The notes below the pieces were generated by a model, which was not told the DNA's origin, made no database searches, and saw only the letters and a list, made by a program, of their open reading frames with translations. A DNA stretch of 64,000 nucleotides from a virus. The translations under genes were made by a program, and so were the position numbers. The stretch is taken from IMG/VR virus record IMGVR_UViG_3300049216_000035, positions 1-64,000 of that record; one strand, 5' to 3'. Shown here piece by piece: positions 1,369 to 53,846 of the stretch. Within the stretch, counting starts at the first letter, position 1. Each line of letters opens with the position of its first letter.

Positions 1369-1935
1369 CTAGGCTGCGGGATCGTCTTTCGGACGTATCA
1401 AGAGCCTGTTTTGCAGGTCAACGGTTGCGCCCTTGCCACTAGCTGGTCCGCCAATCATAAACACCGCCTGTTTGCGATCCCCTGGCATCGACCCACCACG
1501 TTGACCTGGCCGACCATCGTGTCCATAATTGCCTGATCCTGGGCCACCCTCCGTCATCGACTCACGAACTTCGTAGTCTTCGATGTTGAGGTTCTTGGGA
1601 ATGAATCGCGTTGCACCTAGATTGTGGTGCTGTTCTTCAGGCTCTAGCTCGCCCCCGAGCGCGCGAACTTTGGCGTTCAGATCGTCCTGATCCTTAGCAT
1701 CAATGTTCGTAGCGATATGCATGCCGTTGAAGTCGGCATGTTGCCATACGCGACGATCATCGCCAGCCATGACTGACATGATCTTATCTCGCGTATCAGG
1801 TGAGTAGATAGAATCGTCACCTGGATAGCGCGGTTCAGCATCAGCTTTCATATCCCACGGTGCAACAGGTCCGCTATATTCTTCAGCCCCCGGCGCAGCT
1901 TTATCAGGCCTTATCTCCAGGTGCGCTTCCGCCAC
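1369..1935 (-). pseudogene. remnant of MuF-locus cargo polyprotein: unknown module + linker motif + truncated P-loop NTPase
   Basis: MTE-GGPGSGNYGHDGRPGQRGGS followed by AVFMIGGPASGKG (Walker A) and a stop 19 aa later; the 5' end overlaps an out-of-frame linker copy. Confidence 0.55.
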
Positions 1936-1950
1936 GTTGCCCTGGTCGGC

Positions 1951-2661
1951 CTAAGTGGCTCCGGGTCTGCCTGCGTGACCGTAGTTTCCAGAACTAGCCG
2001 TGCCGACTTCAGTCAGATCGCCAGTCGTGACGTACCAGGTGTTGTTTTTGAGTTTGGGGACGTAGCTATCACCAGTCGCATCAGTGAGTGAATCAGCTAG
2101 AGCGTAAGCAGTAACATCATCTGAGATGCCGTTCTTGCCCATCTCGATAGCATCCGCGATCTGATCGGGGTCTTTGAGTAGATCGCTGGCTGCGTCAATA
2201 TCAGCCGAAGCTAAGGCATCGGAAAGACTTCTTACCCCGGCTGCGGCGTCATTGTTTAGCGCGTCTTCAAGCGTTTGATAGTCGTCAGGGTCAATCTCTT
2301 GCTTGAGGTATTCCATTGAAAGGCCACTATCGCTAAGAAAGCCTTCAACATCTGCCTTCGTCAGATCATAGTTCGTGAGTAGCGAATCTAGTACGTCACC
2401 ATATACGGCTGTTGCATCGCCTAAATCGAACTCACCAAAACCAATCGTTCCACGCCACGCCATAAGTTCGAAATCTTCAGGCGCGTCGTCTTCCATTTGA
2501 ACCATGTGGCGACAACGAGAACCACATTCGAAATCCCCCGGCTGCGGTACTTCTTCGCAGGAGTAAGGGTTATTTTGAACTGCATCGCTACAGCCGTCGC
2601 ATGAATCATCGTCATCTGGCCCGACGAACCAAGCGAGCAAGTCCTCAGCATTAACTATCAT
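1951..2661 (-). CDS. MuF-like head morphogenesis protein, Cys-rich C-terminal half + acidic domain + linker motif
   Basis: W..GP...SCDGC...NNPY....P.PG...C...CRH resembles the MuF Zn-binding region; ends LTE-VGTASSGNYGHAGRPG. Confidence 0.65.
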   Translation of the reverse strand: MIVNAEDLLAWFVGPDDDDSCDGCSDAVQNNPYSCEEVPQPGDFECGSRCRHMVQMEDDAPEDFELMAWRGTIGFGEFDLGDATAVYGDVLDSLLTNYDLTKADVEGFLSDSGLSMEYLKQEIDPDDYQTLEDALNNDAAAGVRSLSDALASADIDAASDLLKDPDQIADAIEMGKNGISDDVTAYALADSLTDATGDSYVPKLKNNTWYVTTGDLTEVGTASSGNYGHAGRPGAT

Positions 2662-5279
2662 GCCGCACGACCTGCACGAGATTCAGATGGACGCAAATGA
2701 TCCTCGCGCGTGAAGTGTTCTTCACCGTTACCTAGATCATAGATCGCAATCTCATCACGCGCTTCGGCTTTATCGAGCGCGGTAGCTTTGTCGTTATGAA
2801 CTTCAGAAACATCGAGGTAGGTCTTGCCGTCGTTAACCCACCCGCCGATATAGTGGTTGGGCTGGCTGAGGATGTCTTTGTTTTCGTTGACGAACTTTTG
2901 CACGTCTTCGGGTTTCGCTTCGCCGTTAATAACGGTCTCGACCTTATCACCCGCCGCGTTACGGATTCCAGCTATAGCGAACCCACTACGCGGTCGAACA
3001 CCCGTCGTGCTGATCGTAATGCCGCCATCGCGCACAATGCTGCGAGCGATGATGTTCGGGACAATACTCGACCCACCACCAGCCGAACCACCACGCTGCC
3101 CAGGTCTACCGTCGTGACCGTAATTACCACTGCCTACTCCACCTTCGCGGTACTTTCTATGATTCTGCACTTCAGGGAAATAGCTATGGCGCATCTCATC
3201 AGCTATCTCAACCGGAAATGCGAAGGACTTCTGTTCCGGGAACGAGCGTTGCGAGACGGGCTTACCCTCGTTCTCAGGACTATGATTCACCCAAGCGTTC
3301 TGGGCTAGAGTTTCTGCCGCAAGTGCAGGCAGTGCATCCTTCGAGTACATGCGGCCGTGTGCTTGATAGGCTTTGAACTCGCCACGCTCGCCGAACGTAT
3401 TGTCGGGGAAGAAGTGGCCGTACATATCGTGAACGCCACGAAAGATCGTGTTCGCGGTTTGACCGTCTTCAACGACTTTTGAGAGCGGACTATCGTCAGG
3501 CAAGTCGTCTTTCGAGGATCGCACGAACAGCGTCTTCGTCTGTTGGACTGAACGACGCATATCGGGCTGATCTTTATATGGCTCACCTTTGTCTTCAAAG
3601 TCGAACTTATAGCCCGCCGCTTTGAGGTCGTGATACTGATCTAGCGTTTCTTTTATGAACGCCGCGTAGGCTTTCTGCGTTGCGGGATTCGTGGGGTCGT
3701 GTTTCGCGTCAGCGTATATCTGCGCGATCTTACGCAGCTTGTCGTTCAGATCACCAGTGCTACCAGAACCACCACGTTGACCTGGACGGTCAACATGATC
3801 CCAGTTCCCAGAGCCGCGACCGCCTTCACGCACCTTAATTCGCGGCTTGACTGTCTTGTACGTTACAGCTTCGTCAACGATCTTCTTCGATCCGAAGTCC
3901 ATATTGGAATGAAGAACCATGACGCGAGTATCACGATCAGCTTCCGCCATCGGTGCAGCCTTGAACGTGAACTCCCAATTATGAATGGAGCGGGATTCAG
4001 TGTACGGATTGTATGTTTCGCCGAGGTCTTCTTTGCTTGCGAGAATCCAATCATGCGTATTACCGCGTAGTACGGTTTCATGTTCGTCTTGCAGGTGTAG
4101 GATGCCGTTTCTGGGTTCCGTTAAATACGAGTCAAAGACATCGCTGCTGCGAACACCTTCAAAGTGTATAAGTGACCGACTGAACGACTTCGCTATATCT
4201 TCATCATCAGTTGCAGAGAGAAGCGGTCGGAATTGAACGCGGTCGCCCACAATGGCTTTTGCTAACGCCGCAGCTTCTACGTTGCCAATACCGCGAACAA
4301 GGCCAAGTGCATCATCCCCCATGCGCGTGAACTTCTCAAAGGCTTTGGCTTCCTTATCAGCCTGCTCGGCACACCACTGTTTGACTTGATCTTCGCTTCC
4401 GCCTAACGCTCGAATGTTGCGAAGTTCTGCATCGTACTGTGTTTGCAAGTCTTCCTTGCTACGATACGGCGTAACGAGATTGTCGAACCGATCTTTGCCA
4501 GCCGCCTCGTTCATCACCATTTGCATGAAGTGCGCTGTAGAGTCACGCGACGAGCCAATCCAGTGACCCATCAAATACGACTTGATTTCATCGCTCGTTA
4601 GCGTCTTAGCAGTCGAACCCTCACCGCTGGGCGCTGATCCGCCGACTTGACCAGGACGCCCGGCCTGATCGTGGTTGCCTGAGTTCTCGTTGCCGACTTC
4701 GACCATCGACTCTTTGACTTTATCCTGACGATCACGAGCTTTCACTGCCGTCTGAAAGTCAATCATCGCCTGGATGTAGGCGCGTTCGGCCGCTTTCCAC
4801 AAGAAGTGTCCGTACAGCTTGATACGCGCGATCCGCGCCTTGTCGGACATCCCAGCTTGCAGGTCTGGCTGCAGCGACGTGGTGAGATACTTCTCGTTTT
4901 CGGTCAGTATAGATTGGATGACAGACTGAGGGGCATTAGCGGGAGTGACGGGAGTATAAAACCCCAACCACCCGTTGGTTTTCAGATCGCTAAGACCGCG
5001 CTGATAGCCAGCCGCCACAGCTTGCGGAACGTAGAGTTGCGCCAAGTCCTTGAGTTGCGCGATGCGAGCAACGGGCTTCTTATCAGCACGAGCCGCTTTC
5101 TCAAGATCGCTCTGGTAGCGGCCAATCATCGCCTCAATCGTGAAGATGTGCTTCGAGTGGACGCGCTTCAAGACTGCGGATAGGTTCTTGGTAGTCTCCG
5201 CTCGGAGAGTTTCCGCCTTTTCAGCCGCCTCGATTAAGCGCGAAGCCTCCTCTAGCTTACTCGTCTCCGAGGAGTTCAT
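2658..5279 (-). CDS. MuF-like minor head polyprotein: N-terminal helical half + three cargo modules (ADP-ribosyltransferase-like, HDxxGH domain, unknown domain)
   Basis: Immediately downstream of the portal; three copies of the SGN.xH.xRPGQ.GGS linker; ART motifs LVRG, LSAT, DEHE. Confidence 0.7.
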   Translation of the reverse strand: MNSSETSKLEEASRLIEAAEKAETLRAETTKNLSAVLKRVHSKHIFTIEAMIGRYQSDLEKAARADKKPVARIAQLKDLAQLYVPQAVAAGYQRGLSDLKTNGWLGFYTPVTPANAPQSVIQSILTENEKYLTTSLQPDLQAGMSDKARIARIKLYGHFLWKAAERAYIQAMIDFQTAVKARDRQDKVKESMVEVGNENSGNHDQAGRPGQVGGSAPSGEGSTAKTLTSDEIKSYLMGHWIGSSRDSTAHFMQMVMNEAAGKDRFDNLVTPYRSKEDLQTQYDAELRNIRALGGSEDQVKQWCAEQADKEAKAFEKFTRMGDDALGLVRGIGNVEAAALAKAIVGDRVQFRPLLSATDDEDIAKSFSRSLIHFEGVRSSDVFDSYLTEPRNGILHLQDEHETVLRGNTHDWILASKEDLGETYNPYTESRSIHNWEFTFKAAPMAEADRDTRVMVLHSNMDFGSKKIVDEAVTYKTVKPRIKVREGGRGSGNWDHVDRPGQRGGSGSTGDLNDKLRKIAQIYADAKHDPTNPATQKAYAAFIKETLDQYHDLKAAGYKFDFEDKGEPYKDQPDMRRSVQQTKTLFVRSSKDDLPDDSPLSKVVEDGQTANTIFRGVHDMYGHFFPDNTFGERGEFKAYQAHGRMYSKDALPALAAETLAQNAWVNHSPENEGKPVSQRSFPEQKSFAFPVEIADEMRHSYFPEVQNHRKYREGGVGSGNYGHDGRPGQRGGSAGGGSSIVPNIIARSIVRDGGITISTTGVRPRSGFAIAGIRNAAGDKVETVINGEAKPEDVQKFVNENKDILSQPNHYIGGWVNDGKTYLDVSEVHNDKATALDKAEARDEIAIYDLGNGEEHFTREDHLRPSESRAGRAA

Positions 5280-8200
5280 TGGCGGATTCCACGTTTTCGG
5301 TGATCGACGTAGCGAGTTTCTGAATTGTGTCCATAGCGGGGAGCATGGCTTCCTTGAGGAGATTCATGCGAATAGCACGTTGCAACGACTGCTTACTACG
5401 CATGATCGATGCTTTGCCTTCGTTCGCCATTGGGTTCTTTGCAGCCGAACTGTAGCCACTGGACGGAGCGGTTGGATCGGTATGGATCGGGTCCATCCCC
5501 GCCGCTTTGTTCGTTTTCGTGCTGCCACTGTTCGGCGCTTTACCGGGCGCTGCACTTGGGTTGGATTGTCCACCCGTTCCAGGTGCGCCGCCCTTGGCTT
5601 GTTCTGGCATGAGTTTGTCGCCAGCCACAGCCGGAGGAGTCGGCACGTTGACCATCTGGTTCTGAGGAGCAATCGGCTGCTTCGCGGCCATCTCGGCCTG
5701 CACGTCTTGCGCAATACTCGTCTGAGGAACATGCTCGTTGTCTTGAGTGTAGACGTGAGCGATGGACATCCCGAGTTGCGACTCTTCGAGGATCGTCTGC
5801 CACGAGTCTTCGAAGCTGTACGTCGTGATGTTGAGTTCCTTGGCTGCAATCTTCGCGGCCATAGACTTCGGCATCCACTGCATAGCTTCAGCGAGCGCGA
5901 GGTCTTTCAGCTTCGCACTGCGATCTTCTTGGGCAATAGACGGGAAGATGAACTCTAAGAACTCTTTGGCATAGTTCTGAGACTGTTTGAGAAGTTTTAT
6001 CCGCTTCTTCTGGTCGTCGTTAAGCGGTTTATCGTCGTCGTTGTTTCCGTTGACCGTCTTGTTGAGGTTCTGGTTTGGCTTCTGCTGCGGGTTGTTTGGA
6101 TCGGGGGCTGCTTCGTTGTCCTGATCCTGCGGCTGATTGCCAGCACGAAGCATAGCTTCGCGTAGCTCGAACCCATACTTTGCGGCGACTTCTTCGGGAG
6201 TCATACCCTTCTTGAAGTCGTGGATCGCGGCAGAGAACGGGCTTAGGTCGTGCTTGCCGACCCCGACGCCGTACTTGCCTTTGGAATCGCGAAGCTGATC
6301 GGGATGACCCTCGATCAGTTCAGACTCGGTAAGAGACTCACGCTGCTTGCCAGGCGGAGGTGCCTGTTGCGGGCCATTCTGACCCTGCTGAGGTGGTTGT
6401 TGCCCAGGTTGCGGCTGTTGGCCCGGCTGACCGGGTTGCGGCTGTCCTGGGCCAGCGTTTGGCCCTCCCGGACCCATCGGTGGCGCACCACCAACACCGT
6501 TGAGGCCGAGATTGATATTCGTCTTCGCGCCCGGCTTGTTCAATGCCGTCATGGCCTGCTTGTGCTGCATGCCAAGAGACTGCTTGTCCATCTCGTGACG
6601 GTGCTGCTGATCTTGGACAGACATCGAAAGCGTGGTGTCGTGCAGTTCTTGGGCGTTCTGCTGCTGTTGCTTCTGCTGATCCTGAGCGGCTTGATTCGCC
6701 TGATCCTGTTGGGCCTGTAAATCAGCTTGCAGCGCATCACGATCCGGCAGATCGGTATTGCTCTTAGCCAGCTTCGTTACCGAACGCGCATCAGGAAGGA
6801 TGTCGTTCAGTTTGAGGCGACCACCCTTGATTGCATTGTTAATGACGCGATTCGCCACTGCTTGGCAGAACGATTCAATAAGGCGCTGACGCCGCTCGAA
6901 CCGCTTTACGCCCGGTTCAGTAGCAGTGAGCGCACCGGACTTACCACCCTTACCACTATCTCCGATGAACTCTTTGGGTACGCCAAAACCGACCGCAATA
7001 AGATTGACCAAGGCCGAAATGTCGGACGTAGATTCGTTAGCCTTAATTTCAGAACCAACGGGCTTGAGTTCGAGATTCTTGTTGTGGACGAACGTCGATC
7101 CGGGTTTGTACGGATCGGGAAGGTTTAACTGGACACGCGAGATGTCTTCATTACCGCTGTTGACCGATACGTCCCACACGAACGCTGCTTCGAGTTGGCC
7201 TTTGACCACGCGCGCGTTCATAAGGTCTTGGAGGCGCTTCAACCACCCAAGAATCGAAAACAGGTCACTGCGACCGCGCTTCTCGTACTTCGAGACATTC
7301 AGTTTGATATGCAGGACGTTGTTCGCCGGAATATCCCGCAGAACGTAGCGCATCGAAGGGATGTTGCCCTTCGTATACATTTGATACGCAGTAGAATACT
7401 GCTGACGCATGTAGAAGACTTTTTGGATGTCTTCAGGATCGGTGATAATGTCCCAGATTGTGGACGGATCGATCATCCGATAGTCGGTGTAGCCTTTACC
7501 CAGCTTCGGAACGCTATCGATGAACTCAAGCATGAGTTCACCCGCCCACCACGCATCAGTCGCGATGTTCTCAAGGTCGGTGTAGAAGTCCGTGCGATCC
7601 ACGAACTCGCGCCAGACTTCATCGACTTCTTCGTTCGTAGACGTATGGTCGATACCGCGTCCGAGAACGAACGAGGTTTGTAGTTCGCAGAGTTGGTGCG
7701 CCACTGGGTTGTGGTTGTAAGCCTGAAATGCCTTACGGTGCATGTCAAGCATGTCGTACTGATACAACTGCTTAGACTCTGGTCCGCACATCATGGGGAT
7801 GTACTCTGCGTTAGGATCGCGACCGGAGCCATACGGCGGCATCGCCGTGCCTTGATATGCACTACCACCGCCGAAGTCGTCAGCGTATCCACCGCCGTCG
7901 AAGCCTTCGAGCAAACGATTAGCGGCGGCTTCGATTGCTTCTTCGCGAACGCTATCAGCTTCGCGAAGCGTTACGCCGTAGACATCGGGCGCTTTGTTCG
8001 ACTCGACAAGTTCTTGCCAGCGCGCTTGACCTTCACGCAGCCGCTTCTGAAGTTCCTCACGCGAATTGTACTTCTGAAGACGATACGTCCCGTCAGTACC
8101 AACTTCGAACAGCGTTGCTTGGATTTCCCAGTCAACCTCTTCACCGTTCGGCCCAATCTGTTTGTCAGAAAAGAAGTCGAACTTTCCGACAGTCGGTTCA

Positions 8201-8394
8201 AGAGCTTCCATGAACTCTTTGTCGGGCTGGTAGGGTTCGATAGGGGCTTTGGTCTGGAAAGACTGGGCGAACGTCGCAACTCTCGCTACGGCGCTCTCAG
8301 AGACTTTCTGTGGACTACCACTCTGGTCAACGACAAGAGCCACAGCACTCGACTGTGGCGCGGGGGGTCGTTTTCTAGCTCTAGTCCGTCCCAT
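5257..8394 (-). CDS. portal protein with long N-terminal extension and internal Q/P/G-rich insertion
   Basis: Follows terL; portal-like core (AYNHNPVAHQLCELQTSFVLGRG, IDPSTIWDIITDPED, NVSKYEKRGRSDL, IAVGFGVPKEFIGD). Confidence 0.85.
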   Translation of the reverse strand: MGRTRARKRPPAPQSSAVALVVDQSGSPQKVSESAVARVATFAQSFQTKAPIEPYQPDKEFMEALEPTVGKFDFFSDKQIGPNGEEVDWEIQATLFEVGTDGTYRLQKYNSREELQKRLREGQARWQELVESNKAPDVYGVTLREADSVREEAIEAAANRLLEGFDGGGYADDFGGGSAYQGTAMPPYGSGRDPNAEYIPMMCGPESKQLYQYDMLDMHRKAFQAYNHNPVAHQLCELQTSFVLGRGIDHTSTNEEVDEVWREFVDRTDFYTDLENIATDAWWAGELMLEFIDSVPKLGKGYTDYRMIDPSTIWDIITDPEDIQKVFYMRQQYSTAYQMYTKGNIPSMRYVLRDIPANNVLHIKLNVSKYEKRGRSDLFSILGWLKRLQDLMNARVVKGQLEAAFVWDVSVNSGNEDISRVQLNLPDPYKPGSTFVHNKNLELKPVGSEIKANESTSDISALVNLIAVGFGVPKEFIGDSGKGGKSGALTATEPGVKRFERRQRLIESFCQAVANRVINNAIKGGRLKLNDILPDARSVTKLAKSNTDLPDRDALQADLQAQQDQANQAAQDQQKQQQQNAQELHDTTLSMSVQDQQHRHEMDKQSLGMQHKQAMTALNKPGAKTNINLGLNGVGGAPPMGPGGPNAGPGQPQPGQPGQQPQPGQQPPQQGQNGPQQAPPPGKQRESLTESELIEGHPDQLRDSKGKYGVGVGKHDLSPFSAAIHDFKKGMTPEEVAAKYGFELREAMLRAGNQPQDQDNEAAPDPNNPQQKPNQNLNKTVNGNNDDDKPLNDDQKKRIKLLKQSQNYAKEFLEFIFPSIAQEDRSAKLKDLALAEAMQWMPKSMAAKIAAKELNITTYSFEDSWQTILEESQLGMSIAHVYTQDNEHVPQTSIAQDVQAEMAAKQPIAPQNQMVNVPTPPAVAGDKLMPEQAKGGAPGTGGQSNPSAAPGKAPNSGSTKTNKAAGMDPIHTDPTAPSSGYSSAAKNPMANEGKASIMRSKQSLQRAIRMNLLKEAMLPAMDTIQKLATSITENVESANELLGDE

Positions 8395-8402
8395 CTGTCT
8401 AA

Positions 8403-10022
8403 TTATACGCGATCAAAGCGACGGTAGTTAGCAACCCGAGTCTGGAAACTAGAGCCAATCGTTATGGCTTTGGGGCCACCGCCCTTGAACTGGGACATCG
8501 CGATGGCACTGTAGCTGTTGGCATGAGCATAGTGGTCCGCCCCCAGCTTCTTCCAAATCGCCTTCTGAAGTCCAGTATCTTCGTCCGTGTCGATGACCTT
8601 CGCCATCGCGACAACCTGCTCGATAAACTCTTTGCGGGTGTCGTCTGGCATGCGCGGCAGGATCAGATCGCGGCGCGTAATCTCTTCGTACATGGCATCG
8701 AGCGATTCCGTTCGATTGACGTTAACCGCCCAGTCCTTGAACTCGTCCTGAGTGTTCTCACCCGGCCGAATCCACTTGTACGAGCCCTTCTGTGTGTCAA
8801 CATAGTAGCACAAGTAGACACGGCCACCGAACCGCTTCGCAAAGTCACGGGCTGAGTGCTGATTCGGCAGGCCGTCGATCACGCATATATTCACATCATA
8901 TTCGCGCATGTAGCGATCTAGCTCGAAGAACGTCGCCACCTTGCCGACAAACAGAACGCGCGGTCGGCCAGTGATCTTATCGTTCTGGCGGATGACGATG
9001 TGCAATTCTGATCCACGTTGGTCAACGCCCATGTAGCTGCGCTCGCCCTGGATCATCGCCATGTCTGTGCCTTGATCCATGCACGATTCAACCATGTCTG
9101 CCGTGACGCGCATGTCGCTCGAAATCCACGGAATACCGAGGTCCGAACGCATGAACTCTTCACGACCGCGACCGCTCTCGTACTTGTAGAGCATTTCCGA
9201 TAGATCGGCGACGCCGCCATACAGCCCGCAAAGGTGATAGCCGCGAACGCGCTCAGTCTTCTTTTCTGGTTTCCAGAAGCCGTAGCATTTGTCGAGTTCG
9301 CTATCGCACTTGCGACATACGAGGATCGCCTTCGTCTCGCTGATACGCTTGATAATGTCGGGGAATTGAAACTCGCAGATGTTGTGCGTCTCGCACTTCT
9401 TGCACACGAGATTCCAATAGCGTTTATCCGACAGACCGAACTCGTAGTCGATCCCATAACCATCGAACGTCGGCGTCGATAGCATATACTTCCACTTCAG
9501 ACTGGAGTGGAGCAGCCGCTTCTCGGCGAGTTCTTTCTGATCGGGTGTGACTTCATCGAGTTCGTCAAAGACGAGCATGTCGCCAGGAACAGACTTCAAG
9601 CGAATGTTCGAACGCATGCCTCGGAAATACAAAAAGCCGCGCCCAATCTGACGCAAGCCTACGGAGTCAACATCCTTCGAACCCACGAGTCCTGAAATGT
9701 AGGGACTGTCTTTGATGATCGGCGCAACGCGAGACTTACTAAATTCTCTCACGTCCTCATCGGTCGGGAAATAGTACAAAACATTTTTCCCTAATTTATC
9801 ACAGACGTATAAGGACTTAATCATCCCCAATACCGAAGCACCCATTTGTGCCGATTTTTCAACCACTTGGTATGGGTGAATGTCAGCGTACATATCAATC
9901 AAATAGGCGTGGTCTTCGAAAGAGAACGGCTTGCCGTCCACCTTCACATATTCCTGGGCATACCCGATAAGTGAGGAGTCTGCAATCGCTTGAGCAATCG
10001 CCAGTTCTTCTTTGCTTGCCAT
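8403..10022 (-). CDS. terL: terminase large subunit (lambda gpA-like)
   Basis: VVEKSAQMGAS (gpA-type Walker A), LVFDELDE Walker B, LSTPT, CxxC pairs, nuclease MGVDQ and DHYAHA; ATG at 10022 coupled to the upstream stop. Confidence 0.92.
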   Translation of the reverse strand: MASKEELAIAQAIADSSLIGYAQEYVKVDGKPFSFEDHAYLIDMYADIHPYQVVEKSAQMGASVLGMIKSLYVCDKLGKNVLYYFPTDEDVREFSKSRVAPIIKDSPYISGLVGSKDVDSVGLRQIGRGFLYFRGMRSNIRLKSVPGDMLVFDELDEVTPDQKELAEKRLLHSSLKWKYMLSTPTFDGYGIDYEFGLSDKRYWNLVCKKCETHNICEFQFPDIIKRISETKAILVCRKCDSELDKCYGFWKPEKKTERVRGYHLCGLYGGVADLSEMLYKYESGRGREEFMRSDLGIPWISSDMRVTADMVESCMDQGTDMAMIQGERSYMGVDQRGSELHIVIRQNDKITGRPRVLFVGKVATFFELDRYMREYDVNICVIDGLPNQHSARDFAKRFGGRVYLCYYVDTQKGSYKWIRPGENTQDEFKDWAVNVNRTESLDAMYEEITRRDLILPRMPDDTRKEFIEQVVAMAKVIDTDEDTGLQKAIWKKLGADHYAHANSYSAIAMSQFKGGGPKAITIGSSFQTRVANYRRFDRV

Positions 10023-10432
10023 TAAGCTGCCACCGATTTTCGCGTTGCGAGATAATAGAACGCAGCCGCAACTATAGCGCGACGATCCTTGAACATACCC
10101 AGTCCCGCGTTGCAGTTGAAACATAGCATGCCACGAACCTGACCTGTCTCGTGATCGTGGTCAACGAGTAGCTTCTGGCCTTCTTCGGGAACCATCGCAC
10201 AGATGTTGCACTTTGAATGATCGAGTGAGAGGTATTGTTCGCGCGTTAAGCCGTACTTGCGCTTGACGTGTCCCCAAAAGTCAAGTTCTTTCTTACAAAG
10301 CCCGCAAGTGTTCCAGGTATATCGACCAAAAAGTGCTTCGTCCACATACGCTTCACAACGCGAACACCACCGCAAGCCATCGTGCGGTGGTTTACGTTCT
10401 GATATAGGTGGACGACCTATCTTAGTCGCCAC
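10022..10432 (-). CDS. endonuclease VII-family homing endonuclease
   Basis: CNIC...LLVDHDHETGQVRGMLCFNCNAGLG; lies between terS and terL. Confidence 0.9.
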   Translation of the reverse strand: MATKIGRPPISERKPPHDGLRWCSRCEAYVDEALFGRYTWNTCGLCKKELDFWGHVKRKYGLTREQYLSLDHSKCNICAMVPEEGQKLLVDHDHETGQVRGMLCFNCNAGLGMFKDRRAIVAAAFYYLATRKSVAA

Positions 10433-49554: not shown

Positions 49555-49770
49555 TTAGCTCGGAGTCGTGACCGTAGCCGCGATAGCGACGAAGACCTTC
49601 TGATTCTGAGAAACAAGGTTGCCGCTAATGATAATCGCGTTGCCAGCAGCCGCAGCCGAGTTCATCGCCGTGGCGTCGGTCTGCGCCGCGCTCAGGGTCG
49701 AATACTCAGCTACCAGGTCTTCGCCGAACTGGGTCCGATACTGGATGAAACCACCCGATGCGGTAGCCAT
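49555..49770 (-). CDS. small putative virion protein
   Basis: 71 aa, A/T/S-rich, downstream of MCP. Confidence 0.55.
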   Translation of the reverse strand: MATASGGFIQYRTQFGEDLVAEYSTLSAAQTDATAMNSAAAAGNAIIISGNLVSQNQKVFVAIAATVTTPS

Positions 49771-50426
49771 TACGCTGCTTTCCTTACTGCCCAGCGCGTC
49801 AGTTGTGCGTCGCGCATCTTCTGACGAGTCTCTGGGCTGTGTTTCTTGCCTCGCAACGCGACGCTATTGGCGGCACCAATCTTCGCGCGATGTTCGGGCG
49901 TGAGTTTCGCACCCTTTCGCCCCTTCACCGCAGCCGCGACCATGATCGCCTTCTGCTCGGGGGTGTACTGGTACGGATTAGCCAGCTTCGATGCCCTGAT
50001 CTTCTCTTTTTTCTCTGTTGAACAAGGAATGCGTCGCTTATCGCCAGCCTTCTTTTGTGCCGCTGCGGAGTTGACTTTACGCCGTGCTATCGTCTCCGGG
50101 GAGAGATGGAACAACGGCGAATCAGCCGACTTAGTAGCATTGTATACTGGCTCTAATTTGTTAATCCAGTATTGTTCAAGGGCTACACGCTTTTCCGGCT
50201 CGCACAGTTCGATCACAAAGAAGTCGAACTGATCTTCACCATACTTTGCCCACGCGGCCCGCAGATGCGGGGTAACGTGCCCACCTGTTCTGAGTCGGTG
50301 CAAGTGCTGACGCCACCGGGAGTGGATGTCGATACTCGACCCTATGTACATGTTGCTGTTAATCTTGTTCTGGATTCCGTAGACTCCAGATAGTCTTTTT
50401 GACGCCATATACCTAGTATAACTCAT
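49770..50426 (-). CDS. GIY-YIG homing endonuclease with NUMOD3 repeats
   Basis: SGVYGIQN...MYIGSS...RW..H; GKKHSPETRQKM. Confidence 0.92.
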   Translation of the reverse strand: MSYTRYMASKRLSGVYGIQNKINSNMYIGSSIDIHSRWRQHLHRLRTGGHVTPHLRAAWAKYGEDQFDFFVIELCEPEKRVALEQYWINKLEPVYNATKSADSPLFHLSPETIARRKVNSAAAQKKAGDKRRIPCSTEKKEKIRASKLANPYQYTPEQKAIMVAAAVKGRKGAKLTPEHRAKIGAANSVALRGKKHSPETRQKMRDAQLTRWAVRKAA

Positions 50427-50429
50427 ACT

Positions 50430-50471
50430 AGAGTGTGACAGTTACCCTACATAAGCAGAGTGTGACAGTTA
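50430..50471. repeat. 15-bp direct repeat AGAGTGTGACAGTTA x2
   Basis: 50430-50444 and 50457-50471, between the MCP stop and the GIY-YIG gene. Confidence 0.8.
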
Positions 50472-51617
50472 TATGCCATTTCCGGCGTATAGGTAACGGT
50501 ACTCGATGACCGCCGTCGCGTAGCGACGACGAACACGGTAGCGATACTCGTCCTTTTCGAAGGACGCGCCAGCGTTGCGGGCTTCCTGGAGCAGTTCGAG
50601 CGGATCGCGATCCTGCCACACGATGGACGTTTTCGGTTCCATCAGGTACCAGTAACCGTTGCCCGAGCCGTCAACAGGCAGCCATCGGCTGATCTTCAGC
50701 GTGTAGAGGCCCTGAAGGGGATTGATCGTCCCAGACCAACCCGTCGCGCCACCGCTGAAGAAGGCCGTCTGCGTCGCGCCCGTACCATTGGTCGTGGTAT
50801 TCGGAACGCTCGGTTGCAGCGTCGAGTTCAACAGCTTCGCAGCGTTGAACTTTTCAGCCGGAGCCGTGAGCAGAACGCCCGGCTTGACCATGATCTTGTT
50901 CCCGAGGGGATCGACCATGTTCATCAGAGCGATGTCGGCAGCTTCGAGGCCAGCCTGCGAGAGCTTCGCATACGAGGTCGGACGGTTGCCGATGGCAGTC
51001 GTGTACGACGTGTTCGCGACGCCCGTGATACCACGACCCTGGGTCGTGATCTTGAAGACATCGACGCCCATAACGTCCGCTTCTTCTTTGTAGCGGAGGC
51101 GCTGGCCGAGGCCCGTCGCGCGCTGTTCGATCTGGCCCGTCTGATCGTCATCAATCAGTTCGCGCTCGACCGTGAACATGCGACCGACCTTCTTGTTGAC
51201 GACTTCCACGTCAAGGCCGGACACACGCGAGTCCTCGAACTTGCCGCCGAGCGGCACGTCACGCGGAATCTCGACGCCGAACATCGGGGCGTACCATTCT
51301 TGGCGATTGCTCGACGGACGCGCCGACACGAGGTCGGTATACACGAAGTCGTCAACGCTCTTGTACGCATCGAACATGAAGTGCTGGACGCCGTAGCGCA
51401 GGAGTTGGCCGAAGGCCGTCTCCGACGTGGCTTCCGAGAGCTTCGCTTCAGCTTCCTGAAGGTTCTTGTTGAGACGGCCGAAGCTAAAGTTGTCGGACTC
51501 TAAGAGTTCCTCATACTTCTTCGGATCGACTTTCGCCGAGCGGCGGATCGATTCACCGAGGCGCGTTTGCTGCGCTTCGAGTGCGATTGCCTGACGCTCG
51601 ATCAGAGACTTTCTCAT
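50469..51617 (-). CDS. major capsid protein (HK97 fold, Mu gpT-like)
   Basis: KVGRMFTVERELIDDD.TG, GNKIMVKP..LL, YRVRRRY; probable cleaved prodomain ending KLSE|ATS. Confidence 0.9.
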   Translation of the reverse strand: MRKSLIERQAIALEAQQTRLGESIRRSAKVDPKKYEELLESDNFSFGRLNKNLQEAEAKLSEATSETAFGQLLRYGVQHFMFDAYKSVDDFVYTDLVSARPSSNRQEWYAPMFGVEIPRDVPLGGKFEDSRVSGLDVEVVNKKVGRMFTVERELIDDDQTGQIEQRATGLGQRLRYKEEADVMGVDVFKITTQGRGITGVANTSYTTAIGNRPTSYAKLSQAGLEAADIALMNMVDPLGNKIMVKPGVLLTAPAEKFNAAKLLNSTLQPSVPNTTTNGTGATQTAFFSGGATGWSGTINPLQGLYTLKISRWLPVDGSGNGYWYLMEPKTSIVWQDRDPLELLQEARNAGASFEKDEYRYRVRRRYATAVIEYRYLYAGNGI

Positions 51618-52148: not shown

Positions 52149-53819
52149 TTAGACTCCCATTCCCGCGAAGATGATCGATTCGTTGGCACGAGCATCGCTC
52201 TCGCGAATCTGGACCTGGCGACCGGGGTTGCCGACGATCTTCTTCGTGCCGATTTCGGCAACGTAGTTGACCTCAGTCTCGATCAGAGAGTCCATCTCCT
52301 CAGCCGTCTTGCCAACAAGCGACGGGAGAAGTTTGGTGGCCGCAGCCGCCGGGAGATTGCTCTCCTTCAGCTTGTTCTTGGCCGTCTCGATAGACTCGCG
52401 CATCTCATTTTTGGTGCGCTCTGCCTTGAGTTCTTTCTTGAGGCGCGCTACTTCGGCCGCAGCTTCCGCGCGAGCTTCCGTGAGCGCCGCTTGGAAAGCC
52501 GAACTATTGCGCGAGCGAACATCGCTCTCTTTAGTTTTAGATTCCGAAGTCTGCTCGGACTCATCGTCCTCGTCATCATCGTCATCTTGCGGGGCTTGTT
52601 CGCCCTTCGCAACGAACGGCGGGGCTTTCTTCCCACCGAAATTGGCCGTGCCAGCTTCCTTAGCTTTCGCCTCGGACATGCTCTCGGAACACTCGTCGCA
52701 CTTGCAGTCGTCCTTGTGCGCTTCTTTCATGTCCGTGCCGCTGGTGAGAGCTTCAACGAGCGTTGCGAGGTCTTCCGGGTCAACCGAACCCTCTTTGCTC
52801 TGAGCCTTCAGCCGCTTGGCAGTCTCCACGAGTTTCTTGTCCATCGTAGCTCCCTTATCGCTTTCGACTAGTGCGAGGAATCTGCCGCCCCGCGCGGGTT
52901 TCGTGACCAGATCGGCGCTGAAGGCGTCCGTAATCGAGTTCACATAGTTGACGGACATGCCGCCCACATCTTTAGGTGACACGTCGCCGTCTGCATTGAT
53001 GCTGATACCAGCGTAGACTTTGTTTGGAAATTGCTTCGAATACGCAATCGCCTCTTTGATGAGGCCAACCGCCCAGTCTTGTCCGTCCTGAATCTTGAGC
53101 TTGGCAGCGATAGCCGTCTTGCCGTTGTTCTGGACGATGTGCGAATCGAAGTAGTAACCGAACAGATCGCGCACCGAGCGTTCGGGACGATCAGTCTCTT
53201 CGAACGCGCTCGGATGATCCGCATACGCTTGCGCGCCATCGAACACTTTGTTGGCGACCGCTTTGATGAGCGTGTCTGCCGCGTAATAGTGCTTGTCGCG
53301 CTTGTTGCCCAGACCTTCCTCAATGATAATCACGCTCGCGGTGCGAGTCGCATCATCGTAGGTGCCTTCGATCAGACGAGGATTGAAGACCAGCGTTTCA
53401 CGGAGGTTCTGAACCGACTCTGTTATCGCCGACTCTTTACTCTTCGTGCCGAGCATCTTGTGCGCTCGTACTTTGATCTTCTTCTTATCTTCTGCCGAGA
53501 GGTTCTTGCCTCGCGATAGCATCTGGAGCGCCAGCCGTGCATGCTTCTTGTCCGGCATCGGGAACCGACCACCGGGAAGAGTCTCAGTACGCTGACGTAC
53601 CTTTTTGCCTACCGCCTCTTCGATGCTGTTGTCGGTCGGATGAGTCGTCTCAGGAGAGATCGTATCCGTCCGGCGAGTCTTGGCATCGAAGGGTCCGGGC
53701 ACTTTTTCAGTTTTCAAAGGCAGATAGGCCCTCGACTTACCAAGTCGGGGCTGTGCACCGTCCCGGAAGAGTTGTCCGGCCGCAGTTCCAGACTGCGCCT
53801 GACGCGAGGCGACCATCAT
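52149..53819 (-). CDS. prohead protease-scaffold with N-terminal DUF6582-like domain (start uncertain)
   Basis: IIEEGLGN..HYY, YADHP, RSVRD, GISIN, SADLVTKPARGG; C-terminal coiled coil; RFPMPDKKHARLAL. Confidence 0.8.
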   Translation of the reverse strand: MMVASRQAQSGTAAGQLFRDGAQPRLGKSRAYLPLKTEKVPGPFDAKTRRTDTISPETTHPTDNSIEEAVGKKVRQRTETLPGGRFPMPDKKHARLALQMLSRGKNLSAEDKKKIKVRAHKMLGTKSKESAITESVQNLRETLVFNPRLIEGTYDDATRTASVIIIEEGLGNKRDKHYYAADTLIKAVANKVFDGAQAYADHPSAFEETDRPERSVRDLFGYYFDSHIVQNNGKTAIAAKLKIQDGQDWAVGLIKEAIAYSKQFPNKVYAGISINADGDVSPKDVGGMSVNYVNSITDAFSADLVTKPARGGRFLALVESDKGATMDKKLVETAKRLKAQSKEGSVDPEDLATLVEALTSGTDMKEAHKDDCKCDECSESMSEAKAKEAGTANFGGKKAPPFVAKGEQAPQDDDDDEDDESEQTSESKTKESDVRSRNSSAFQAALTEARAEAAAEVARLKKELKAERTKNEMRESIETAKNKLKESNLPAAAATKLLPSLVGKTAEEMDSLIETEVNYVAEIGTKKIVGNPGRQVQIRESDARANESIIFAGMGV

Positions 53820-53846
53820 TCTCACCCTTATCCGCCACGAAGTCAC

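Follow-up and report, generated by a model that had tools for sequence, protein, structure and literature searches.

A probable deletion scar between two linker copies in a cargo gene string of a moss-metagenome phage

Modular phage proteins and the layout of the locus

The polyvalent proteins of phages and conjugative elements carry two to fifteen distinct effector-type domains per polypeptide and are highly mosaic (Iyer, Burroughs, Anand, de Souza and Aravind, 2017, PMC5512222). The gene string described here is like them in having several unrelated modules per polypeptide, in lying beside head genes and in being mosaic among relatives. Phage mosaicism reportedly arises by illegitimate recombination and then selection, the Hendrix-Hatfull model. 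In phage T4, the internal head proteins and Alt are trimmed by the prohead protease after L/I-x-E. The abstract of Zhang et al. (2012, PMC3482391) attributes the diversity of polymorphic toxins to recombination with stand-alone cassettes. In the Rhs, CDI and MuF members of this group variable modules lie behind a conserved boundary motif, and the locus analysed here shares this arrangement.

The window, the whole 64-kb stretch of DNA that was analysed, is the first part of a 74.5-kb IMG/VR phage contig that CheckV rates as complete. On its minus strand the genes follow in the order large terminase (8403-10124), portal (1045 aa; 5257-8394), an 873-aa multi-module gene immediately after the portal (2658-5279), a 236-aa ORF (1951-2661), a 188-aa ORF (1369-1935) and two small ORFs. 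Reading on round the permuted contig, the head maturation protease (52149-53846) and the major capsid protein (50469-51617) come next. The locus is thus the slot between portal and protease where packaged cargo genes sit in many phages. Three linkers, whole copies near 4682, 3812 and 3131, divide the 873-aa protein into four modules. The ATG of the 236-aa ORF overlaps the TGA of the 873-aa gene (ATGA), and its product consists of a Cys-rich N-terminal module and an acidic helical region that ends in the front half of a linker, followed by Ala-Thr-TAG. The 188-aa ORF, which starts with a GTG at 1935, is a remnant.

No Pfam or PHROG family was found for the 236-aa and 188-aa ORFs, nor for the downstream 154-aa and 114-aa ORFs. 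Among the window proteins of this string the only family trace, apart from the Zeta-toxin-like stub described below, was to phrog_832 (ADP-ribosylase, E 0.0094), with no Pfam match. In the portal, the Pfam family Phage_portal_2 matches residues 243-475 only and the PHROG portal family spans about 218-653, and the protein carries long Q/P/G-rich and helical extensions after the portal match. The major capsid gene is followed immediately by that of a homing endonuclease (49770-50426; phrog_314, E 2e-26).

Compared with the polyvalent proteins, the locus is likewise phage-encoded next to virion genes, and the 873-aa protein is likewise multi-domain, with up to nine linkers in its relatives. It differs in that the window modules match no Pfam LPD or ART family and in that a 16-aa linker core stands at each boundary. 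Compared with the Rhs and CDI toxins, the boundary motif here is conserved as protein and not as DNA, the joint described below is non-homologous, and the modules are internal, not solely C-terminal. No orphan cassettes or immunity genes of the Rhs/CDI type were found, and the 74.5-kb genome holds no further copies of the linker or of the lost sequence. The MuF toxins (SPP1 gp7, Phage_Mu_F) differ again, as neither the 873-aa nor the 236-aa protein has an N-terminal PF04233; no match to this family was found in these two proteins or in nine homologues of the Cys-rich module, and a few relatives of another module, here called module X, have PF04233 elsewhere in the protein.

The linker family and the joint of two half-linkers

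Each module boundary bears a 16-aa linker core, SG(N/D)xxHxGR(P/K)GxxGGS. Among 87 fetched proteins, 29 contain the motif (28 relatives and the 188-aa ORF of the window, the latter entered twice under two ids), with 82 instances in all. The linker stands between successive modules, at one to nine copies per protein, and the order of the modules varies; P0078, with nine, has the most. A linker between modules of varying order is an expression of the mosaicism already described for polyvalent proteins (PMC5512222), in a paper from whose text the word 'linker' is absent. A search of the accessible literature for spellings of the motif found no paper.

The invariant portion of the linker is its Gly/His/Arg core. 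Each linker in the window phage and its nearest relatives is preceded by hydrophobic-x-Glu, which, together with the position of the cargo genes near the head genes and the protease at 52149-53846, recalls the trimmed head proteins and Alt of T4. The likeness is incomplete, however: the Glu is absent in many members of the linker family (P0048, P0064, P0071, P0078), and cleavage at the linker is putative here.

The whole genome contains four full linkers of the form SGNxxHxGRPGQxGGS (three in the 873-aa gene and one in the 188-aa ORF) and two halves, and no others. As DNA, all pairs of copies in the genome are 58-73% identical with exact runs of at most 17 nt, and two copies whose 16-aa cores are identical share 35 of 48 nt, the longest exact run being 8 nt. 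The linker is conserved as protein and scrambled at synonymous sites, a state that could reflect selection against repeat-mediated deletion.

The two halves lie side by side at the end of the 236-aa ORF. Frame 0 of the minus strand reads ..VGTASSGNYGHAGRPGAT and then the TAG (1953-1951) that ends this ORF, and includes the front half of one linker, SGNYGHAGRPG (1960..1992), here called linker (i). From 1957 the -1 frame reads HLGRPGQRGGSAPGDKA up to a TGA at 1906-1904; this segment (1907..1957), open in the -1 frame only, is the back half of a second linker, linker (ii), with its spacer. Its GRPGQRGGS recurs letter for letter in three in-frame linkers (near 3812, 3131 and 1536), and its tail, APGDKA, is similar to MPGDRK in the copy at 1536. 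With an exact match of nine residues in about 128,000 six-frame positions, chance is excluded. The sequence is therefore as an earlier note on this DNA described it, a half-motif followed by an out-of-frame back half, the two halves coming from different copies of the linker.

The joint falls at 1959..1960, where the left end is ..CCCGGA and the right side starts with GCCACTTA; the longer flanks are ..AGACCCGGA on the left and GCCACTTAGG on the right. It is 20 nt out of register, giving the -1 frame, and has no microhomology, the corresponding sister sequences having no base in common at that point. The 236-aa and 188-aa ORFs share one frame with a single TAG between them, and the -1 frame gives a proper reading only over the 51 nt from 1957 to 1907. 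In the doubled HxGRPG segments 13 of 18 bases agree and most of the mismatches are synonymous, which marks the segments as two old copies that now adjoin and not as a fresh duplication. A fresh 20-nt tandem duplication is ruled out by these synonymous-site differences and by the different continuations of the two segments in sister alleles.

Sister haplotypes and the eroded remnant

The stretch was found in moss-metagenome runs, and Logan contigs from four of these (X1, X3, X5 and X7) were compared over 1200-2800. Logan data are contigs and not raw reads, with 30 letters visible at each loose end. One X1 contig matches 1200-2442 with zero differences and crosses all joints. X1 is probably the source sample of the window assembly, and X3 is thus the sole independent sample with the scar. 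In X3, which carries another sample and study code, contigs of 1334-1817 and 1894-2044 match the window, again with zero differences, at the joints as elsewhere.

A second haplotype is present in X5 and X7. The contigs of these runs are 95-99% identical to the window, and they stop at 1959/1960, with both sides loose, and at 1799. Past 1960, downstream in the gene, they translate in frame as GHAGRPG followed by Q(I/V)GGSAGGTD, and before 1959 they translate in frame as EGGPGSGNHG followed by HLGRPGQRGGSAPGDKADKAAPG (HLGRPGQRGGS). The loose ends thus give whole linkers, and both half-motifs are parts of whole linkers in the sister phages. The sequence beyond these linker ends is absent from the entire window genome. 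The earlier note had supposed that sequence between two motif copies was deleted and had looked to mixed alleles or intact relatives as a check; both linkers are whole in X5 and X7, each half leading there into absent sequence, and in P0035, a more distant relative, a DUF7178 module separates modules of the kinds that flank the joint here. No single contig joins linker (i) to linker (ii) in X5 or X7, and we infer that both intact linkers stood in one parental genome.

The differences between the haplotypes also bear on the reading frame, as 10 of 11 in 1493-1905 (our count) are at third positions of frame-0 codons, so that frame 0 is confirmed as coding. Neither IMG/VR nor the JGI metagenome contigs nor the protein collections yielded a long contig of the intact haplotype. 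Viral contigs were searched with the 236-aa, 188-aa and P0002 proteins and with exact DNA patterns for the intact joints and loose ends, and metagenome contigs with the 236-aa protein and with the front half-linker at 1960-1983, which is common to both alleles; this blank is of little weight. Nor did blastn against the INPHARED phages return such a contig. A look-up of clusters gave no variant members, and a length-restricted search with module X returned only the window's own protein.

The 236-aa ORF has 84 homologues, mostly long multi-module proteins in which a whole linker follows the module. The closest, P0002 (61% identity, 471 aa), joins the module through one whole linker (..GRPGERGGSATGDKAAK..) to a full Zeta module, which scores above the Pfam Zeta_toxin cut-off (E 3.9e-9). 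In P0005, ART-PolyVal reaches 31.1 bits, just below the Pfam cut-off of 31.2, and a weak Zeta_toxin match 17.6 bits (cut-off 22.3); relatives of the window modules as a whole bear ART-PolyVal, Zeta_toxin and metallopeptidase-like domains. Residues 8-60 of the 236-aa protein (CDGC..C..CRH) match the extreme C-termini of many proteins of 190-1090 aa. In P0035, encoded on a 73-kb contig, a single protein has a 236-like module, a linker, DUF7178, a linker and then full module X; in P0003 and P0007, too, the first linker is followed by DUF7178. By analogy with these relatives, a DUF7178-like module is a reasonable guess for the lost piece, one that the ten residues at the loose end cannot confirm.

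Downstream of the joint, the window has one extra C at 1907..1908 (CC against C in the intact haplotype), present in X1 and X3 and absent, as a single omitted base at 1907, from both X5 and X7. It returns the reading from the -1 frame to frame 0. With this base left out, the sequence reads GDKADKAAPGAEEY without a break from linker (ii) into the next module and matches ..SEKAAPGAEGY.. of P0088. The near-repeat GATAAGGC/GATAAAGC, which the earlier note had marked as a possible second junction, is present, and its DKADKA is a genuine peptide repeat; as a second recombination joint it was rejected, what lies there being the 1-nt indel.

The 188-aa remnant is a predicted ORF whose GTG is in frame thanks to this extra C. 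The GTG lies 15 nt after the TAG and has no clear Shine-Dalgarno sequence, as is the case for most genes of the phage. From linker (ii) the ORF has 17 codons, read out of frame, and from module X the first 35 and the last 90 aa; it also contains a whole linker (SGNYGHDGRPGQRGGS, 1489..1536) between module X and what follows, a Walker A stub and a tail of 17 aa.

Module X lacks its core at a second deletion joint, an in-frame one (1798..1800), between ..SIYSP and DTRDK. The spacing from APWDMKA to HADFNG is 41 aa in the window against 196-198 aa in nine relatives, and a MAFFT alignment with P0088, P0039, P0035 and P0028 places a single gap of 157 columns at window position 1799. The X5 and X7 contigs that break here continue with ALKDATDKY on one side and ..NTVGTPSLSS on the other, matching SPAIKDAQGNY and ENTVGTPSVSA of the relatives. 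Module X is therefore full in the sister haplotype, whereas in the window about 156 codons have been deleted in frame from its interior. This deletion has one shared base at its ends and lies inside the module.

Homologues of module X sit inside long multi-module proteins. The full module is a conserved domain of about 300 aa with the motifs DHAQLHPGEIA, RVVVPF, WQHADFNGxHIA and GATRFIP (P0088 217-520, P0039 1366-1640, P0035 550-869). No Pfam family was found for it in P0088 or P0028, nor any PDB relative or ESM Atlas neighbour, and it is an uncharacterised cargo domain. P0088 itself (672 aa, on a 73-kb contig) has counterparts of the two end modules of the 873-aa window protein but full module X in place of the two middle ones, a clear instance of module replacement between related phages.

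The Zeta-toxin-like P-loop stub (RKQAVFMIGGPASGKGATV, 1420..1476) is shorter still. In blastx, 19 aa around the Walker A motif and no more match the Zeta modules, full ones, of P0005, P0004, P0006, P0002 and P0007. Tested against Zeta toxin (PF06414), the stub gave no Pfam match and is not a full domain of about 200 aa, the remainder being absent. The stop of the ORF (1369) comes 17 codons after the stub, and the join of stub and tail is in frame. The X5 and X7 contigs depart from the window at 1422 and 1401, the X7 contig having another 818 nt of different sequence upstream. Simple divergence was rejected for these breaks, as the tails are homologous but the sequence upstream is unrelated to the Walker A stub. 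Since distant relatives have the complete forms, the window state is derived at every site.

Alternative explanations and proposed history

Our reading, to which we give a probability of about 0.8, is that a true deletion has left this scar in a decaying part of a phage string of 'polyvalent' cargo genes, where linker (i) was joined to linker (ii) and the intervening sequence was lost. The two haplotypes, with their exact break points, and the relatives, which supply the missing parts by comparison, have been described above; for all three deletions we infer breakage by illegitimate end-joining or template switching. An artefact of assembly, which the earlier note had named as something that would overturn its reading, or of sequencing is very improbable. 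The window is indeed a metagenome contig with a repeated motif at low depth (8.3 and 2.6), but the independent Logan assemblies give the identical joint in X1 and X3, two runs with different sample and study codes, and the junction in X3, having been filed separately, is not the artefact of a single assembly. The DNA copies of the linker are, moreover, too dissimilar to confuse an assembler, and the junction words are not ones that a graph assembler could invent. Equally little weight attaches to a programmed -1 frameshift that would complete the linker at the C-terminus of the 236-aa protein. Shifting into the -1 frame ahead of the TAG does yield ..GRPG.HLGRPGQRGGSAPGDKA, but no slippery heptamer (X XXY YYZ) was found at 1996-1951, the gain would be 17 residues only with HxGRPG doubled, and the sister haplotype has plain in-frame linkers with no change of frame.

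The remaining alternatives accept the joint and differ as to its origin. Two co-infecting phages, one with [236-aa module]-linker-Y and the other with Z-linker-[module X], might have recombined illegitimately in a failed module swap. Such a swap accords with the lack of a contig joining the two intact linkers, with relatives that carry their modules in many orders (module X precedes the Cys-rich module in P0021, P0028, P0089, P0092 and P0093) and with piece depths in X5 that are about two-fold apart (6.8 against 3.3-3.6). The pieces in X7, however, have like depths (4.2-4.9), as expected for one genome, the flanks on either side match the window at 95-99% identity in X5 and X7 alike, as they would in one sister genome, and a single protein of P0035 holds the 236-like module, linker, one module, linker and module X; we regard the swap as unlikely. 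Somewhat harder to sustain is the view of the earlier note that the linker drives shuffling as in polymorphic toxin loci, that is, that it is a recombination site promoting homologous cassette exchange, like the pre-toxin motifs of Rhs and CDI proteins, and that the scar is a misfire. Both deletion ends do lie within linker-coding DNA, and in the 28 relatives the linker separates successive modules while their order differs, so that the claim that the motif bounds exchangeable modules stands at the level of the protein family; the linker DNA as a driver of exchange does not. With copies of 58-73% identity and short exact runs, the linkers are poor substrates for homologous recombination, even where their 16-aa cores are identical. 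Microhomology is lacking at the joint, where the two linkers are out of register; two further deletions, at 1799 and about 1422, lie outside linkers; the genome has no orphan cassettes; and selection alone explains the placement, as only joints within linkers leave modules whole.

On the preferred reading, that of a deletion scar, the parental string would have been [Cys-rich 236-aa module]-linker (i)-[one or more modules]-linker (ii)-[full module X, about 300 aa]-linker-[Zeta-toxin-like kinase], a form that would still be present in sister phages of other moss samples. A non-homologous deletion would have joined linker (i), right after its GRPG, to linker (ii), right before its His, removing all between. 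With the two linkers misaligned by 20 nt at the joint, the upstream protein would have come to end three codons later at the TAG, as a half-linker plus Ala-Thr. A single-base insertion 52 nt downstream would then have restored the original frame, in which the GTG may open the remnant of 188 codons. The remnant itself would have been gutted, module X losing its central 156 or so codons and the Zeta module being reduced to its Walker A loop. The joint probably persisted since a break inside a linker keeps the upstream module whole; tolerance of this kind is the simplest explanation of its placement. Joints without homology that survive where the folding unit is unbroken, and close haplotypes that differ by clean indels, are features shared with the Hendrix-Hatfull mosaicism, whereas the joint in the window is unclean and out of frame, with its half-and-half motif visible and the adjoining modules also decaying.

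All four lesions (+20 nt, +1 nt and two in-frame deletions) keep frame 0, though the TAG interrupts it; were they neutral and independent, this would be expected in about 1 case in 27. The deletions may have occurred while the polyprotein was still read through, or there may be residual selection. TAG is a normal stop that ends many genes of the phage, which encodes no tRNA, so that read-through by recoding is unlikely; TAG recoding was rejected on these grounds, there being no suppressor tRNA. The four frame-keeping lesions and the GTG also leave a long shot, that the remnant, mainly linker sequence and stumps of modules, is still made and selected and the linker is a functional unit (e.g. 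a capsid-targeting or self-processing signal), or that linker DNA is preferred for template switching in replication.

The locus is a case of erosion by illegitimate recombination within a mosaic polyvalent gene of a phage, a known kind of change that needs no new mechanism of recombination. The locus offers a natural before-and-after pair, in which haplotypes 95-99% alike differ by whole and partial cargo modules at break points resolved to the base. It indicates that cargo strings shrink by non-homologous deletion and that a break in a linker leaves the upstream module intact. It also carries the caution that conservation of the linker is at the level of protein and not of DNA. If the remnant were selected, or template switching occurred at the linker, the linker would be more than a passive spacer. 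Many uncultured phages encode the linker, in as many as nine copies per protein, and its role is a more interesting question than the scar.
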